Of a stretch of 37,781 nucleotides of DNA, positions 16,119 to 30,053 are shown one piece after another; the first letter of the stretch is position 1; each line of letters opens with the position of its first letter. Under the pieces are notes generated by a model, which was not told where the DNA came from, ran no database searches, and saw only the letters and a list, made by a program, of their open reading frames with translations. Source of the DNA: Desulfitobacteriaceae bacterium (GTDB lineage: Bacteria; Bacillota; Desulfitobacteriia; Desulfitobacteriales; Desulfitobacteriaceae); assembly GCA_035561335.1 (NCBI GenBank), contig DATMXV010000303.1, forward strand, positions 1-37,781, given 5' to 3'. A program made the translations under genes and the position numbers.

Positions 16119-16790
16119 GTGATCAGGGTGGCGCCCTCTATTTTATCTGCTGATTTTTCCCGGCTTGGGGAAGAAATCAGGACTGTGGAAAAAGCAGGTG
16201 CTGATATACTCCATATAGATGTTATGGATGGTCATTTTGTTCCCAATATTACCTTGGGGCCGGCGTTGGTAAAATCTTTGCGTCCGCATACCGGGATGCA
16301 GTTTGATGTTCATCTGATGATTGAGGAACCGGAACGTTTTATTGAAGAATTTGCCGCGGCCGGAGCAGATCATATTACTGTCCATCTGGAAGCAACCCGG
16401 CATATCCATAGGGTTATTCAACAAATTAAAGCCTTGGGGATTACCGCAGGCGTGGCCCTCAATCCCGCAACTCCCCTGGACGGACTGAAATATATTCTGG
16501 AAGATTTGGATATGGTATTATTAATGACTGTTAATCCCGGTTTTGGAGGGCAAAAGTTTATCCCCAATGTCTTGCCTAAAATTAAAACTTTGCATCGGCA
16601 TTTGGATCAGATGCAATTTTCCTGTCAAATTGAAGTTGATGGCGGGATTCAAATTGGAACTGTTCCGGCAGTTGTTAAAGCAGGTGCGGAAATCCTGGTA
16701 GCCGGGGCGGCTGTTTTTTCCCAAACGGATCCTTCCCGGGCTTTATTGGAACTATCGGCGCTGATAAATAATCTGGATAAGGGCAAATAG
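16119..16790 (+). CDS. rpe: Ribulose-phosphate 3-epimerase
   Basis: Family signatures PSILSADF, HIDVMDGHFVPN and MTVNPGFGGQ are present. The start is GTG. Confidence 0.95.
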   Translation: MIRVAPSILSADFSRLGEEIRTVEKAGADILHIDVMDGHFVPNITLGPALVKSLRPHTGMQFDVHLMIEEPERFIEEFAAAGADHITVHLEATRHIHRVIQQIKALGITAGVALNPATPLDGLKYILEDLDMVLLMTVNPGFGGQKFIPNVLPKIKTLHRHLDQMQFSCQIEVDGGIQIGTVPAVVKAGAEILVAGAAVFSQTDPSRALLELSALINNLDKGK

Positions 16791-16807
16791 TATATATACC
16801 AGGTAGA

Positions 16808-17035
16808 CCCTCACGCCGCTACGCAACACCATCAGAAGGATGAAAATTAAACGTAGGGAGATCCAAGTGCTAAGAGAACCGATTTCGCGAAGGAGCGTAA
16901 GCGAACGAAACGGAGCAGCGTTAAGAAGTGCCACGGGTTTACATTCAGGCTAACCCAGAGGTTTGGCACTTTAGCTGCGTAGTGGAGTGAGCAGCTCCGC
17001 AGCGATGGTGAACGTGCACTTGTATCTCCCGGAGT
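16808..17035 (+). repeat. Unclassified ~230-nt repeat element, copy A (between rpe and thiN)
   Basis: It aligns end to end with 28801-29030, at roughly 90% identity by hand alignment. It is flanked by the direct repeat GGTAGA (16802-16807 and 17036-17041). Confidence 0.9.
16856..17030 (+). ncRNA. Candidate structured RNA core of copy A (class unknown)
   Basis: A closing helix pairs 16856-16870 with 17016-17030. Hairpin 16879-16913 carries a GUAA tetraloop. Hairpin 2 pairs 16926-16932 with 16965-16971. Hairpin 3 pairs 16974-16979 with 16998-17003. The G16979-C16998 pair becomes A-U in copy B. Confidence 0.5.
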
Positions 17036-17114
17036 GGTAGATATTTAATGATGCAAGAATATAATTAATGTAGATTAAGAATATATTTGTCTACGTTTTG
17101 AGGAGCAGGTAAAG

Positions 17115-23699: not shown

Positions 23700-23812
23700 C
23701 TGTTAGGCAGTAAAATAAATCATTATTGCCCACTCACATACTCTGTGTTTGCTATTCACTTGACAATTAAGCTACACGCCAAAACCTCTGGGCTTTGCTG
23801 CATGAATTACCG

Positions 23813-24985
23813 CTATTTGTACTTGGCCCGGAGTCGATATAGAAGAGATAGTACCAGTAAGCATCCGATAGAGCCGGCGAAGATGAGAAAACTCAGCCGC
23901 CAGGTATTTAACCAAAGCTGGGTTGTGGGGATTGGCGGAAGAAACAGGCCGGTGGCGGCCGGGACTTTGCTGACGAACAGAAAAAGCTGGCTTAGTGCCA
24001 GAGCAAGGAAGGCATGGAGAATCCGGGCAAAAACGAAGGGCCCCATCCGAAGGTCAGTTTCTGCGGTAAAACTGGCTATCTGGGCAAAAATTGACAAACC
24101 GCTCCAGCCCATTAGAAATGAAAGAGTCCCGATTTGTTGGGAAAGCGCGGGAAAAGTTTGAATTGCTCCCTGACAGCCAATAGTCATTTCGAAGAGGCCG
24201 TTAATTATGCTTTCGATCCTTTCCACTGCTAGTAAACCGCCTGTTAAAGGGTGGATCAGGACTGCCAGGACCGAAGTAATATGCCAGGTTGTTAATAAAT
24301 GGATTATTACGGAGAAAAAAACCACAAACCCGCCTACTGTTATCACATTTGTGGCACTGTTACGGATAGAATCTCCCAGAATTCTTCCCACTGGACGGCC
24401 GTCAAGGTTTTGAGCATGTTTCATTTCCTGAAATGCTTTTTTCAAACTTGGGGCCGGCGCCGGATGCCGGGAATTTTGGTCTGAATGATAAAAACGGAAC
24501 AGCAGGCCAACTCCCAGATTAGCAAGATAAACTGCGCCGGCTAAAATAATACCTAGTTCAGGCTGGCCTAACATTCCCGAAGCTACCGCCCCAAACATGA
24601 AACCGGGGCTGGGATTATTGGTAAAAGCCAGTAAGCGTTGACCTTCCTCCCGGGTTATTTCAGCCTGATTGCGCAGACGGGCAGTTAAAACTGCTCCCAG
24701 AGGAAATCCCGAAGTATACCCCATAACAATAACAAAGGAAGCTTTACCCGGTAAATGAAACAAAGGACGCATCAGGGGTTCCAGCATAACCCCGAGAAAA
24801 TGAACGAAACCCTGCGCGATCAAAAGTTCCGACAGGATAAAAAAAGGCAGCAAGGCAGGAAGTACATAGCGCCACCAGAGAGTGAGTCCGGCAGTAGCGG
24901 AAGTCAGAACATCTTGGGGATTGGCAAACATTCCTATAGCCAGCAAAGCCAGGGGCAGTATGCGCAGCAGTGCATTCATAAGCAA
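23813..24985 (-). CDS. ylbJ: Sporulation integral membrane protein YlbJ
   Basis: 390-aa polytopic membrane protein with a nucleoside-recognition-like repeat architecture. The N-terminus (LWWRYVLPALLPFFILSELL...GFPLGA) is typical of YlbJ. Confidence 0.85.
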   Translation of the reverse strand: MLMNALLRILPLALLAIGMFANPQDVLTSATAGLTLWWRYVLPALLPFFILSELLIAQGFVHFLGVMLEPLMRPLFHLPGKASFVIVMGYTSGFPLGAVLTARLRNQAEITREEGQRLLAFTNNPSPGFMFGAVASGMLGQPELGIILAGAVYLANLGVGLLFRFYHSDQNSRHPAPAPSLKKAFQEMKHAQNLDGRPVGRILGDSIRNSATNVITVGGFVVFFSVIIHLLTTWHITSVLAVLIHPLTGGLLAVERIESIINGLFEMTIGCQGAIQTFPALSQQIGTLSFLMGWSGLSIFAQIASFTAETDLRMGPFVFARILHAFLALALSQLFLFVSKVPAATGLFLPPIPTTQLWLNTWRLSFLIFAGSIGCLLVLSLLYRLRAKYK

Positions 24986-25030
24986 TTCACCTGTTTTTAA
25001 ATAGCAGTTATTATATAGGGATTCAGAATT

Positions 25031-25161
25031 CAGGAGTCAGAATAATATCGGTATTCTTCCAGAAAACCTTATGTAATTTTAAAAAAAATTCAGAAGTATA
25101 CTTTTTATGCTATACAACAAGTCTTCAAATGTTTTCGCTGGTTCTCTCATTCTGACTCCTG
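25031..25161. repeat. 13-bp perfect inverted repeat (CAGGAGTCAGAAT / ATTCTGACTCCTG) flanking a 105-bp AT-rich spacer
   Basis: The left arm is 25031-25043 and the right arm is 25149-25161. A third partial copy, CTCCTGACTCC, lies at 25171-25181. All are in the divergent ylbJ/yceD intergenic region. Confidence 0.8.
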
Positions 25162-25253
25162 TTTTCTGTCTCCTGACTCCCGAGTAGTTAAAAATAGATA
25201 TCTGGATGGAGTACCTACCTGAATAATATGGTTGATTGAGCAGATTCATTCGC

Positions 25254-27851: not shown

Positions 27852-28799
27852 ATGATTATAACTGAGATTTGCGGGCTCTTAGGGATAAAATATCCAATTA
27901 TTCAAGGGGGAATGGCCTGGGTAGCTACCGCTGAGTTGGCAGCGGCTGTATCTGAAGGCGGAGGTTTGGGAATTATTGCTGCCGGGACGGCCCCTACAAC
28001 TTGGCTAGAGCAGGAAATACATAAACTTAAGCAAATAACCCGGAAGCCCTTTGGGGTTAATATAATGTTGTTGTCCCCGTATGTTGAGGAGATCATGGAC
28101 CTGATTATCAGGGAAAGGGTGCCGGTGATCACAACCGGGGCTGGAAATCCCGGCAAATATGTCCCGAAATTAAAGGAAGTCGGCACGAAGGTGATTCCGG
28201 TTGTGGCCTCAGTTGCCCTGGCCAGGCGTTTGGAAAAAGCCGGGGTCTCGGCCCTGATAGCTGAGGGAATGGAATCAGGAGGGCATGTCGGGGAAATTTG
28301 TACATTACCTCTGGTGCCTCAGGTTGTGGATGCTGTCAGGATCCCGGTGATTGCCGCCGGGGGGATTGCTGACGGGCGTGGCCTTCTGGCTGCTCTTTCT
28401 TTAGGGGCGGCAGGTGTCCAGATGGGGACCCGTTTTATGTGTGCTGCTGAATGTACAATTCCTTTGCCGGTAAAAGAAGCAATTCTCAAGGCTAAGGAAC
28501 GTGATACTGTAGTTACGGGTCAAACAACAGGGCACCCTGTGCGCTGTCTGGAGAATCGTTTTACCCGGGAATTTGCTCGGCTTGAGCATGAAGGGGTTGC
28601 GGCAGCTGAACTGCAGGAACTGGGTACCGGCAGATTGCAGTTAGCAATGGTAGAAGGTGATATTGTCAATGGCTCAGTAATGGCCGGTCAGATTGCCGGG
28701 GCTGTTCAGCGCATTGAGCCGGCAGCTGATATTTTAAGGGATATAATAGAAACGGCGGAAGCGGAATGGCAGAAACTAGGCGCTTATTTCCAGAGATAG
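27852..28799 (+). CDS. fabK: Enoyl-ACP reductase II (FMN-dependent, FabK)
   Basis: Near-colinear resemblance to FabK as I recall it (YPIIQGGMAWVA, FGVNIMLLSP, ITTGAGNPGKY, AEGMESGGHVG, PVIAAGGIADGRG, VQMGTRF, GSVMAGQIAG). Confidence 0.9.
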   Translation: MIITEICGLLGIKYPIIQGGMAWVATAELAAAVSEGGGLGIIAAGTAPTTWLEQEIHKLKQITRKPFGVNIMLLSPYVEEIMDLIIRERVPVITTGAGNPGKYVPKLKEVGTKVIPVVASVALARRLEKAGVSALIAEGMESGGHVGEICTLPLVPQVVDAVRIPVIAAGGIADGRGLLAALSLGAAGVQMGTRFMCAAECTIPLPVKEAILKAKERDTVVTGQTTGHPVRCLENRFTREFARLEHEGVAAAELQELGTGRLQLAMVEGDIVNGSVMAGQIAGAVQRIEPAADILRDIIETAEAEWQKLGAYFQR

Positions 28800-28800
28800 G

Positions 28801-29030
28801 TCCCCATGCCGCTGACACAGCGCCATCAAAAGGATGAAAGTTAAACGGAGGGAGATCCAAGTGCTAAGAGAACCGATTTCGCGGAGGAGCGTAAGCGAAC
28901 GAAACGGAGCAGCGGTTAAGAAGTGCCACTGGTTTACATGCAGACTATCCCAAAGGTTTTGGCACTTTAGCTGCATAGTTGAGTGAGCAGCTCTGCAGCG
29001 ATGGTAAATGTGCACTTGGATTTCCCGGAG
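28801..29030 (+). repeat. Unclassified ~230-nt repeat element, copy B (between fabK and fabD)
   Basis: It aligns end to end with 16808-17035. It is flanked by the direct repeat TAGG (28797-28800, which is the fabK stop codon plus G, and 29031-29034). Confidence 0.9.
28850..29026 (+). ncRNA. Candidate structured RNA core of copy B (class unknown)
   Basis: A closing helix pairs 28850-28864 with 29012-29026: 15 bp including G28854-U29022. Hairpin 28873-28907 has GUAA at 28891-28894. Hairpin 2 pairs 28921-28927 with 28961-28967. Hairpin 3 pairs 28970-28975 with 28994-28999. Confidence 0.5.
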
Positions 29031-29114
29031 TAGGATTCTTATGTAATAATTTATTTTTCAGTAGTAGATGATTAAGTCCCGGGTAATTTATTCTTTAAGA
29101 GAGAGGAATAAGAA

Positions 29115-30053
29115 ATGGGTAAATTGGCATTTGTTTTTCCCGGTCAGGGTTCACAGTTTGTGGGGATGGGAAAGGAACTTTTTGAGACTGCTTGCGGGCA
29201 GGAAGTATATGCTGCAGGGCAAAGTGTTTTAGGAAATGATTTTCTAAAGATTATGGAAACCGGCCCGGAAGAAGAATTGCAGATTACGTATAATACTCAG
29301 CCGGCGATTTTACTTGTCAGTATAGCTGCCTGGTGTCAGCTGCGGGCTGCTGGAATTGAAGCGGATTATCATGCCGGGCATAGTCTGGGGGAGTACTCGG
29401 CCCATGTCGCTGCCGGGAGTATCAGCCTTGAGGAAGCACTCAGAGCGGTCCGCCGGCGGGGGGAACTAATGGAGATGGCTGTTCCGGCGGGCCGGGGAAC
29501 TATGGCGGCAATTCTTGGTTTGGAAGCAGACAAGGTTGAAGAAGCGTGCAGGCTGGCGGAGGATTCCGGTTCCGTGGGGCCGGCAAATTACAACTGCCCC
29601 GGTCAGATTGTGATTTCCGGGGAGACGCCGGCTGTACATAAAGCAATGGAAATGGCTAAAACACTGGGAGCAAAGCGTACTGTTCTTTTGTCTGTCAGCG
29701 GACCTTTTCATTCGGTATTGATGGGAAGTGCCGCCGGGGACTTAAACAAGGCTCTCAATGAGGTGAGTTGGCAGGAACCGCGTTGTCCCGTAATTGCCAA
29801 TGTTGACGCTCTTGAAGTTGTTGATCACCGGCGGACTATAGAAACCCTGGTCCGGCAATTGAGCGGGGCGGTTTTATGGGAACAATCAATCCGTTATTTA
29901 ACGGCAAAAGGTGTTGATACCTTTGTGGAATGCGGTCCGGGTAAGGCCTTGAGCGGTTTAATCAAGAAAATAGCTCCTGATGCTGATTTGCTTCAGGTTG
30001 GAGACTTGGTTTCTCTGGAAAAGTCACTTGCATATTTAAAGGAGAGTAGATAA
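29115..30053 (+). CDS. fabD: Malonyl CoA-ACP transacylase
   Basis: FVFPGQGSQ and the GHSLGEYSA active-site motif are present. Confidence 0.95.
   Translation: MGKLAFVFPGQGSQFVGMGKELFETACGQEVYAAGQSVLGNDFLKIMETGPEEELQITYNTQPAILLVSIAAWCQLRAAGIEADYHAGHSLGEYSAHVAAGSISLEEALRAVRRRGELMEMAVPAGRGTMAAILGLEADKVEEACRLAEDSGSVGPANYNCPGQIVISGETPAVHKAMEMAKTLGAKRTVLLSVSGPFHSVLMGSAAGDLNKALNEVSWQEPRCPVIANVDALEVVDHRRTIETLVRQLSGAVLWEQSIRYLTAKGVDTFVECGPGKALSGLIKKIAPDADLLQVGDLVSLEKSLAYLKESR

Follow-up and report, generated by a model that had tools for sequence, protein, structure and literature searches.

Repeats like MITEs (miniature inverted-repeat transposable elements) are co-transcribed in untranslated regions (UTRs) and operon spacers (PMC3184786, PMC3446304). 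ERIC-type repeats become long RNA hairpins in this way, and these can change mRNA decay (PMC3184786). The bcr repeats of the Bacillus cereus group are frequent in UTRs and intercistronic operon regions and have a stable predicted RNA structure (PMC3446304). Here we describe a pair of repeats, copies A and B, in a 37,781-nt stretch of DNA (the window), an entire 37.8-kb contig from the metagenome-assembled genome (MAG) of an uncultured member of the Desulfitobacteriaceae (assembly GCA_035561335.1, contig DATMXV010000303.1). We think it probable that A and B are ~240-bp, non-autonomous, insertion-polymorphic foldback repeats of a new family, co-transcribed in the manner of ERIC or bcr. The family has been seen so far in one clade of uncultured Desulfitobacteriaceae.

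ERIC (~127 bp) and RU repeats are, like this element, imperfect palindromes of 100 to 250 bp that lie between genes inside transcription units, often at 3' ends, and are insertion-polymorphic among close relatives. However, ERIC belongs to another phylum and has no sequence similarity to the element. Furthermore, ERIC-type repeats have terminal inverted repeats with a TA flank, whereas the element has an internal palindrome after a 55-nt leader, and no duplication is seen. The bcr1-bcr3 repeats (~150 bp, MITE-like) share with it a Firmicute host and restriction to a clade. bcr1 reportedly has terminal inverted repeats, a TTTAT duplication, and tens to hundreds of copies, but neither such repeats nor a duplication could be demonstrated in the element. 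The Correia repeats of Neisseria and the RUP repeats of pneumococcus are also small, noncoding, co-transcribed MITEs, and their hairpins are targets of a double-strand-specific RNase (RNase III). Their defining terminal inverted repeats and TA duplications were not found in the element.

REP/REPIN sequences are extragenic palindromes near or overlapping the ends of open reading frames (ORFs), with a GTAG-type end motif and no terminal inverted repeats or duplications; the element likewise has no terminal inverted repeats, and it shows no convincing duplication. RAYTs cut GTAG-tagged REPs at the GTAG, and a neighboring ORF often takes its TAG stop from the end of such a REP (PMC3733652, PMC2817692). 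However, REPs are only 20 to 40 nt long, have GTAG directly before the palindrome, usually number more than 100 copies, and are described mainly in Proteobacteria. The element has 240 nt, its GTAG-like motifs stand in direct orientation at both ends and apart from the palindrome, and there is no RAYT in the loci that we fetched. Palindrome-associated derivatives of IS200/IS605 insertion sequences (ISs) and omega-RNA scaffolds resemble it in the size of a left end plus a structured right end, in the lack of inverted termini and the apparent lack of duplication, and in a strand-specific structure near the right end. Unlike these, the element has neither tnpA nor tnpB close by, the hairpins at its two ends do not match, and its orientation follows the upstream gene instead of one DNA strand. 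Its sequence and the structures that define the ends of the known families place the element outside ERIC, bcr, REP/RAYT, and IS200/IS605. In look and position, the ERIC- and bcr-type repeats appear closest, and REP/RAYT and IS200/IS605 derivatives appear similar to a lesser degree.

The repeat pair and its empty sites

The copies and a related sequence in the window are as follows.

16801 to 17040, plus strand: copy A, 240-nt element, defined by alignment with copy B; present in L001 and L002 and absent from the rpe/thiN spacers of relatives
28794 to 29033, plus strand: copy B, 240-nt element, defined by alignment with copy A and by the short fabK/fabD spacers of relatives
23715 to 23834, minus strand: degenerate relic of a diverged subfamily (the third locus), 3' half only, defined by nhmmer matches

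A first-pass annotation of the window had described 16808-17035 and 28801-29030 as an end-to-end repeat with ~22 differences, including 3 single-nt indels. Global alignment of these two segments bore out the repeat, at 88.7% identity from end to end (blastn E 1e-82), and the differences came to 22 mismatches plus 4 gap columns. Homology and empty sites set wider bounds, at 240 nt for each copy, over which A and B are 88-89% identical. One A/B indel, an extra G at ~28914, is private to this contig and missing from 3 other same-species assemblies. GC content is 50-52% in the element, compared with 20-32% in the surrounding native spacers. The pair is the sole long, high-identity repeat within the window. 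The annotation's statement that nothing else is repeated there holds at high identity, but it misses the degenerate half-length relative at 23715-23834 (minus strand).

Copy A starts 10 nt past the rpe stop codon (16788-16790) and ends 74 nt ahead of thiN (17115). Copy B begins within the last two codons of fabK (NMO family; ORF 27852-28799), and its first bases, AGATAG, provide the final fabK codon and the TAG stop. The fabD gene starts at 29115, 81 nt beyond the end of copy B. All four genes are on the plus strand in tightly packed operons. At 3 of 3 loci, the element is sense-oriented and directly behind the stop codon of an ORF, and A and B (plus) are in the opposite orientation to the third locus (minus) within 12 kb. 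Consensus scans, which are crude, found no promoter or terminator inside the copies or common to both. Judging from this same-strand gene order, the element would be transcribed solely within the host operon mRNA, where it might form a long sense-strand hairpin between cistrons or in a 3' UTR.

Orthologous regions of other assemblies were fetched through the flanking proteins (these loci carry L numbers). Same-species assemblies are 99.8-99.9% identical over tens of kb, and at least three carry copies at the same places, with copy A in L001 and L002 and copy B in L013, L014, and L016. Two of these, L002 and L016 (contigs of GCA_032941855.1), start inside the element, in a 70-nt stretch that is near-identical in A and B; this can be understood because an assembly break is expected at a repeat. 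Related genomes were different. The rpe/thiN spacer has 30 nt in L025 and L027 (thiN 90-91% identical) and 71 nt in L008 and 114 nt in L009 (84-85%), all without the element. In L026, L028, and L029 (89-92%), the same spacer contains an unrelated MITE instead, at varying insertion points. Likewise, the fabK/fabD spacer has 30, 35, and 46 nt in L008, L030, and L031, without the element. FabK of these three has 317-324 aa and ends in ...AYFQGK or ...AYFQGSD, whereas FabK of the window has 315 aa and its end, ...AYFQR, lies within the element.

In sum, copy A is absent from the orthologous site in 7 of 7 related genomes sampled, and copy B in 3 of 3. The first-pass annotation had proposed looking for empty sites at rpe-thiN junctions, and every relative sampled proved to be empty there or otherwise filled. 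Because losses would need seven other lineages, parsimony favors gain over loss, and this comparison indicates that A and B are insertions gained in the lineage of the window's species. The element explains two 315-325-nt gaps in tight operons, the shortened FabK C terminus, and contig breaks in the MAGs of the species. A group I intron that restores FabK was also considered. We rejected this, as the 5' exon does not end in U, no Rfam intron matches, and copy A is intergenic.

Both copies are 74-81 nt ahead of a start codon, on the sense strand and inside an operon, which is where a cis-regulatory leader (riboswitch-like or attenuator) for thiN and fabD would be. However, the downstream genes are unrelated, encoding thiamine pyrophosphokinase and malonyl-CoA:ACP transacylase, and the orthologous thiN and fabD genes of all relatives sampled do without the element. 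Also, the third locus has convergent neighbors and no sense downstream gene, and neither a terminator/anti-terminator alternative nor an Rfam match was found. A regulatory leader is close to refuted, and we give it a very slight chance.

Two other features of the rpe/thiN spacer were seen. The MITE in the three sisters belongs to a second, unrelated MITE-like family of ~175 nt, which in the window occupies 25017-25192, between a Gate-domain gene and yceD, and has heptad-built terminal inverted repeats (GGATTCAGAATTCAGGAGTCAGAAT / ATTCTGACTCCTGTTTTCTGTCTCCTGACTCC). In the rpe/thiN spacer it lies at ~9830-9975 of L026, ~9795-9965 of L028, and 1-65 of L029, and because it sits at different positions in the three sisters, the spacer looks like an insertion hot spot. 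A small hairpin, GTAGA...TCTAC, lies just upstream of the thiN ribosome binding site (window 17070-17095) and is conserved in the window, L009, L028, and L029. L008 carries a similar replacement, and the 30-nt spacers of L025 and L027 are without the hairpin.

Fold of the core and a diverged subfamily

Each copy has a 55-nt leader that starts AGGTAG or AGATAG, a core of 175-177 nt, and a 10-nt tail that ends GGTAG or AGTAG. Its parts are as follows.

16801 to 16855, plus strand: leader of copy A and its least conserved portion, which starts AGGTAG and includes a C-rich stretch (CCCTCACGCCGC)
16856 to 17030, plus strand: core of copy A, a 175-nt GC-rich imperfect palindrome, from self-complementarity, the minimum free energy (MFE) rod, and the RNAalifold consensus
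16856 to 16925, plus strand: 5' arm of the copy A core, with a GUAA-capped mini-hairpin at 16895-16902, near-invariant compared with copy B
28850 to 29026, plus strand: core of copy B, 177 nt, from folding and the consensus

The copy A leader also has a small hairpin of its own (CAUC-AGAAG-GAUG, 16830-16842). The core is palindromic over its whole length, with self reverse-complement scores of 68 (A) and 62 (B), compared with -15 ± 15 for shuffled sequences (z ~5.6). Fold energies had z scores of -3.2 (A) and -3.45 (B) against shuffles, and the minus strand also reached -3.2. With RNA parameters, the MFE structure of the core is a single long rod of -71.2 (A) and -69.4 (B) kcal/mol. The first-pass annotation had instead drawn a closing helix around three hairpins, one of them with a GNRA loop. 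This junction is 4-8 kcal/mol worse than the rod with RNA parameters, whereas with DNA parameters the four-way junction is the minimum-energy fold. The two models have in common the closing helix of 15 positions (16856-16870 with 17016-17030 in A; 28850-28864 with 29012-29026 in B) and the stem of the central hairpin (16926-16933 with 16964-16971 in A; 28921-28928 with 28960-28967 in B). The GNRA loop was confirmed as the GUAA mini-hairpin at 16895-16902. A K-turn in hairpin 1 was considered and dropped, the resemblance being loose.

A weak blastn match led to a diverged subfamily on the minus strand. An nhmmer search with a profile of A and B recovered a complete unit in L025 (16575-16728, E = 1.9e-8) and, in the window, half of one (23751-23806, E = 0.0034). 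With the full L025 unit as the query, the window relic was matched at E = 3.5e-16, and A and B were matched at 1e-6 to 1e-7 over most of their length. The relic consists of the central hairpin loop, the 3' arm, and the 3' strand of the closing helix. It begins immediately behind the TAG stop codon of the minus-strand Gate-domain gene (23813-24985), which converges on a 162-aa ORF. This third locus is filled in the window's species and in four sister assemblies (L025, L027, L029, and L031), and L009, an 84% relative, has a 14-nt spacer there. L025 has three tandem units there, and the window has only a 3' half; the unit of L029 has lost its central hairpin through an internal deletion, and that of L031 has gained a 55-nt insertion. 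The presence of the diverged subfamily at a locus common to sister species indicates that the family is older than the A and B insertions. The indels and tandem stacking look like the behavior of decaying or rearranging mobile DNA. The ~55-nt piece inserted in L031 (1245-1300, minus strand; GGATGTGCCAAGTGCCGAAC...) resembles the 5' arm of A and B, which hints at recombination between the subfamilies.

The L025 unit folds as a rod as well (z = -3.6), and its 16-bp closing helix has a wholly different sequence while the interior is common. For the pair counts, copy A, two variants of B, and the L025 unit were aligned with MAFFT in the ordinary way, and the covariation counts thus come from essentially one independent diverged sequence. 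The rod has pairing in 94.7% of cells and compensation at 12 of 48 pairs, compared with 0-2 in slid controls, and 0 of 500 shuffles reached the observed value. Helices found only in the junction model (hairpins 1 and 3) have 2 compensated pairs and 7 pairs that are broken in the L025 unit, whereas the arm-to-arm helices found only in the rod have 6 compensated pairs. The closing helix and central hairpin are kept across the subfamilies. Therefore, these parts of the first-pass fold stand, but the L025 unit does not retain hairpins 1 and 3 and has arm-to-arm pairing instead. The pair that it reported to covary (G16979-C16998 in A, A28975-U28994 in B) does change on both sides, but in the rod the change at C16998 merely shifts G-C to G-U. 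Across the subfamilies, the conserved feature appears to be one long hairpin, and the compensated pairs fit RNA or a single-stranded DNA hairpin equally. For those who hunt RNA motifs, this is a caution that an intergenic element may be rich in GC, fold well, and covary and still be a foldback repeat instead of an RNA gene.

No further copies turned up when 294 kb of related loci were searched with a covariance model of A, B, and the L025 unit. However, when the plus-strand ORF of copy B was used in an exhaustive protein search, it matched P0254, a "hypothetical protein" of 45 aa encoded on a JGI metagenome contig of 4.1 kb. Residues 13-45 of P0254 are a frame of the element (SRREIQVLREPFSRRSVSERNGAALRSATGLHSE), with the 5'-arm stretch kept at the amino acid level. 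Therefore, there is at least one more subfamily-1 copy elsewhere. An exact-word scan of genome contigs with AGCGTAAGCGAACGAAACGG had 3 matches, none of them the element, and the species representative is apparently without an assembled copy. A scan of metagenome contigs with AAGTGCTAAGAGAACCGA had 2 chance matches in genes, which is a weak negative because the last base of the word differs in the copy behind P0254 (I to F).

Christensenellaceae MAG contigs contain 50-nt hairpin repeats (TGTCATCTCGACCGGAGTGAGCGTAAGCGAACGAAACGGAGAGATCTAAG; L004 1585-1634 and 1731-1780, L003 7430-7510) that have no Rfam match. They share 23-29 nt with the GUAA mini-hairpin region of the element at 96-100% identity, which extends beyond the 20-mer used as the probe. 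This may be a shared hairpin module or a coincidence.

Ends of the element and its possible route of movement

The 15-bp inverted repeat that bounds the core is not terminal, as it lies 55 nt inside the left end and 10 nt short of the right end. At its true ends, the element has short motifs in direct orientation (AGRTAG ... GTAG) and no inverted repeats; the palindrome lies 50 nt away from the GTAG-like motif on the left and 10 nt away from that on the right. If AGRTAG is counted as part of the element, the left flanks are TACC and CCAG; otherwise, both end in TAG. Local alignment of flank against flank at the two sites found only TTATTT (B) and AGWATATAT (A), in AT-rich DNA. A longer candidate target duplication at copy B (TTATTTYCAG) failed this test. 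The foot of the right hairpin is 10 nt from the end, and the left end contains no more than a 4-bp hairpin, which is unrelated in sequence.

These ends bear on the explanation that A and B are classical MITEs, that is, internally deleted ISs of the DDE type, with the 15-bp GGGAGATCCAAGTGC / GCACTTGGATCTCCC as transposase binding sites. The core is bounded by such a repeat, and the small size (240 nt), lack of a conserved ORF, multiple copies, and insertion polymorphism all fit. Also, a genuine MITE family with terminal inverted repeats occupies the same spacer in the same genomes. However, the inverted repeat is internal, no target duplication survives the local alignment test, and the palindrome extends over the entire core and not the ends alone. 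Also, the diverged subfamily has a wholly different closing helix with a common interior, and the IS elements in the fetched loci are unlike the element. Classical DDE cut-and-paste is disfavored because there are neither terminal inverted repeats nor a convincing target duplication, and we consider a DDE-type MITE quite unlikely.

For the foldback repeat that we favor, the most likely route is movement as a single strand (HUH/Y1, IS200/IS605- or RAYT-like) or site-specific movement, probably with an enzyme supplied in trans from elsewhere in the genome. Pfam labels revealed no genes for an HUH transposase (Y1 transposase or RAYT) or for TnpB in ~400 kb of fetched loci, which are mostly the same region of different genomes. 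Of the source genome itself, the analysis covered ~50 kb. IS fragments in L019 and L030 had no similarity to the element.

A more specific proposal is that the element is an IS200/IS605- or REP/RAYT-type derivative, moved as single-stranded DNA by an HUH tyrosine transposase, and that its core might be the leftover omega RNA scaffold of a TnpB-like nuclease. The absence of terminal inverted repeats and of a clear duplication gives weak support at two sites, and the hairpin foot 10 nt from the right end fits. The direct AGGTAG/AGATAG ... GGTAG/AGTAG ends recall the GTAG tag cut by RAYTs, as does the TAG stop supplied to a neighboring ORF (PMC3733652). However, no fetched locus has a Y1 transposase, RAYT, or TnpB by Pfam label, the left end has no hairpin like the right one, and the sense strand is not favored with DNA parameters. 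Opposite orientations within 12 kb fit the upstream gene better than replication, and two full insertion sites are known. The leader plus ~175-nt structured part is, we presume, of a size to fit a left end and an omega-RNA-bearing right end. Overall, we regard such a derivative as unlikely, though it deserves some weight. An IS110-type bridge RNA was also considered and rejected; by eye, the loops had no complementarity to flanks or ends, and the two targets are dissimilar.

Strand preference, conservation, and possible RNA roles

Folding with RNA parameters favored the sense strand over the antisense strand by 8.6-14 kcal/mol in each of the 5 sequences tested, and the sense strand has more G-U pairs. 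This advantage disappears with DNA parameters. The first-pass annotation had argued from G-U pairs and the GNRA loop that the plus strand acts as RNA, which the RNA-parameter advantage supports modestly and the DNA parameters do not. If the element has any host role, it might be that of a 3'-end protecting hairpin or a hairpin processed by a double-strand RNase, like ERIC, REP, and bcr. Such a hairpin might uncouple the stability of upstream and downstream cistrons.

Differences between A and B are distributed along the element as follows.

Leader: 11 differences in 55 nt
5' arm: 1 difference in 70 nt (binomial p = 0.0017 versus a uniform rate)
Central hairpin: 6 differences in 47 nt
3' arm: 7 differences in 58 nt

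All 7 of the 3'-arm changes sit in loops, make G-C into G-U, or mend a mismatch. At the third locus, the 3' half has fewer differences than the flanking genes: 4 in 72 compared with 16.6% (p = 0.005), and 3 in 125 compared with ~10% (p = 0.001). Strain differences are enriched ~10-fold in the element, as 4 of 23 mismatches in 12.6 kb fall within its 246 nt (L001, L013, and L014), and several of these polymorphisms give one copy the state found in its counterpart. Gene conversion between the copies, or a mixing of reads during MAG assembly, may explain this. The A/B differences are not adenine-specific, so a template/variable pair of a diversity-generating retroelement was rejected, as was a retron noncoding RNA (ncRNA), no reverse transcriptase gene being nearby.

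Several observations weigh against A and B being nothing more than selfish foldback repeats. We infer mobility from presence and absence alone, and no transposase or partner element was found. The near-invariance of the 5' arm (p = 0.0017) and the third-locus 3' half that is better conserved than its flanking genes both suggest selection beyond that on a selfish repeat, and a strand asymmetry specific to RNA energies hints at selection as well. Also, the family is known from three independent loci and about five independent sequences. As evidence of selection, however, the A/B conservation is weakened because gene conversion between copies can mimic it. The conservation and strand hints are compatible with RNA-level constraint and also with gene conversion.

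A rival explanation is that A and B are stand-alone genes for a small structured RNA, a new class of ncRNA of ~180-230 nt that is transcribed from the plus strand and acts in trans. The stable fold, compensatory changes across subfamilies, RNA-specific sense advantage, highly conserved 5' arm, and third-locus 3' half more conserved than neighboring genes could all be explained in this way. Membership in a known family was not found either. The first-pass annotation had seen no fit to the RNA classes that it considered and suggested cmscan, and Rfam 15 (4227 families) had no match at gathering score in the whole window. Near copy A there was none at E <= 10, and near copy B and the L025 copies there were only chance matches (E 1.9-7.5), far below gathering. 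However, no promoter or terminator is common to the copies, the orthologous sites are empty in all sister species sampled, and copy B overlaps the end of fabK. Furthermore, the third locus, which is shared, has half-deleted, internally deleted, expanded, and tandem forms that wreck the fold. An independent ncRNA gene is disfavored because there is no Rfam match, no common promoter or terminator, and no conservation at orthologous positions, and we judge it distinctly improbable. Of the two options that the first-pass annotation offered, the empty sites and variable forms favor a structured non-autonomous mobile element over an independent ncRNA gene family.

Another reading is that A and B are mobile RNA modules. 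A sense hairpin of ~175 nt with its leader would spread to the 3' ends of genes as single-stranded DNA, cut at its GTAG-like ends by an HUH-type enzyme, and would be kept by RNA-level selection. Its role could be that of an mRNA 3'-end stabilizer, a site for processing by a double-strand RNase, or a scaffold, similar to a guide RNA, for a nuclease or recombinase whose gene lies elsewhere. We offer this tentatively and think it unlikely to be correct. If it is true, long hairpins of the Desulfitobacteriaceae would join the REP/RAYT or IS200/IS605 guide-RNA world. If the hints of sense-strand and RNA-level constraint hold with many copies, then this would be a tractable mobile element that installs an RNA hairpin at gene ends in uncultured anaerobes. 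On present evidence, it is one more uncharacterized repeat family and an ordinary kind of bacterial genome parasite.

The question of a protein product also arises, as the plus strand has an ORF of 37-50 codons that could encode a small basic peptide (MK[IV]KRREIQVLREPISRRSVSERNGAA...). Of the 4 A/B differences within its first 35 codons, 3 are synonymous and the other changes I to V, but the probability of at least 3 of 4 synonymous changes by chance is ~0.06. P0254, the 45-aa ORF annotated on another contig, is 79% identical. However, its N terminus is unrelated, and the start codon of A and B does not lie in its frame. The Shine-Dalgarno-like AAGGA abuts the ATG, the stop shifts between copies (37 codons in A; 47 or 50 in B), and copy B of the window is frameshifted. 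The diverged subfamily has an in-frame stop codon, and there is no protein family and no other homologue among 1.8 billion representatives. An exact look-up found that the window's own spurious ORFs are absent from the protein collection, and a chimeric six-frame protein query of the element had no matches, although short ORFs were probably crowded out. A functional peptide is barely credible, and we regard the ORF as noncoding. At the nucleotide level, blastn of the element against plasmid and phage collections and exact-word scans of viral contigs found nothing.

Elsewhere in the window, positions 1-1500 lie in a strain-variable segment between metK and priA. Compared across L019, L020, and L021, this segment contains DDE transposase fragments plus an M14 peptidase, three small ORFs, or nothing, with each state in one assembly.

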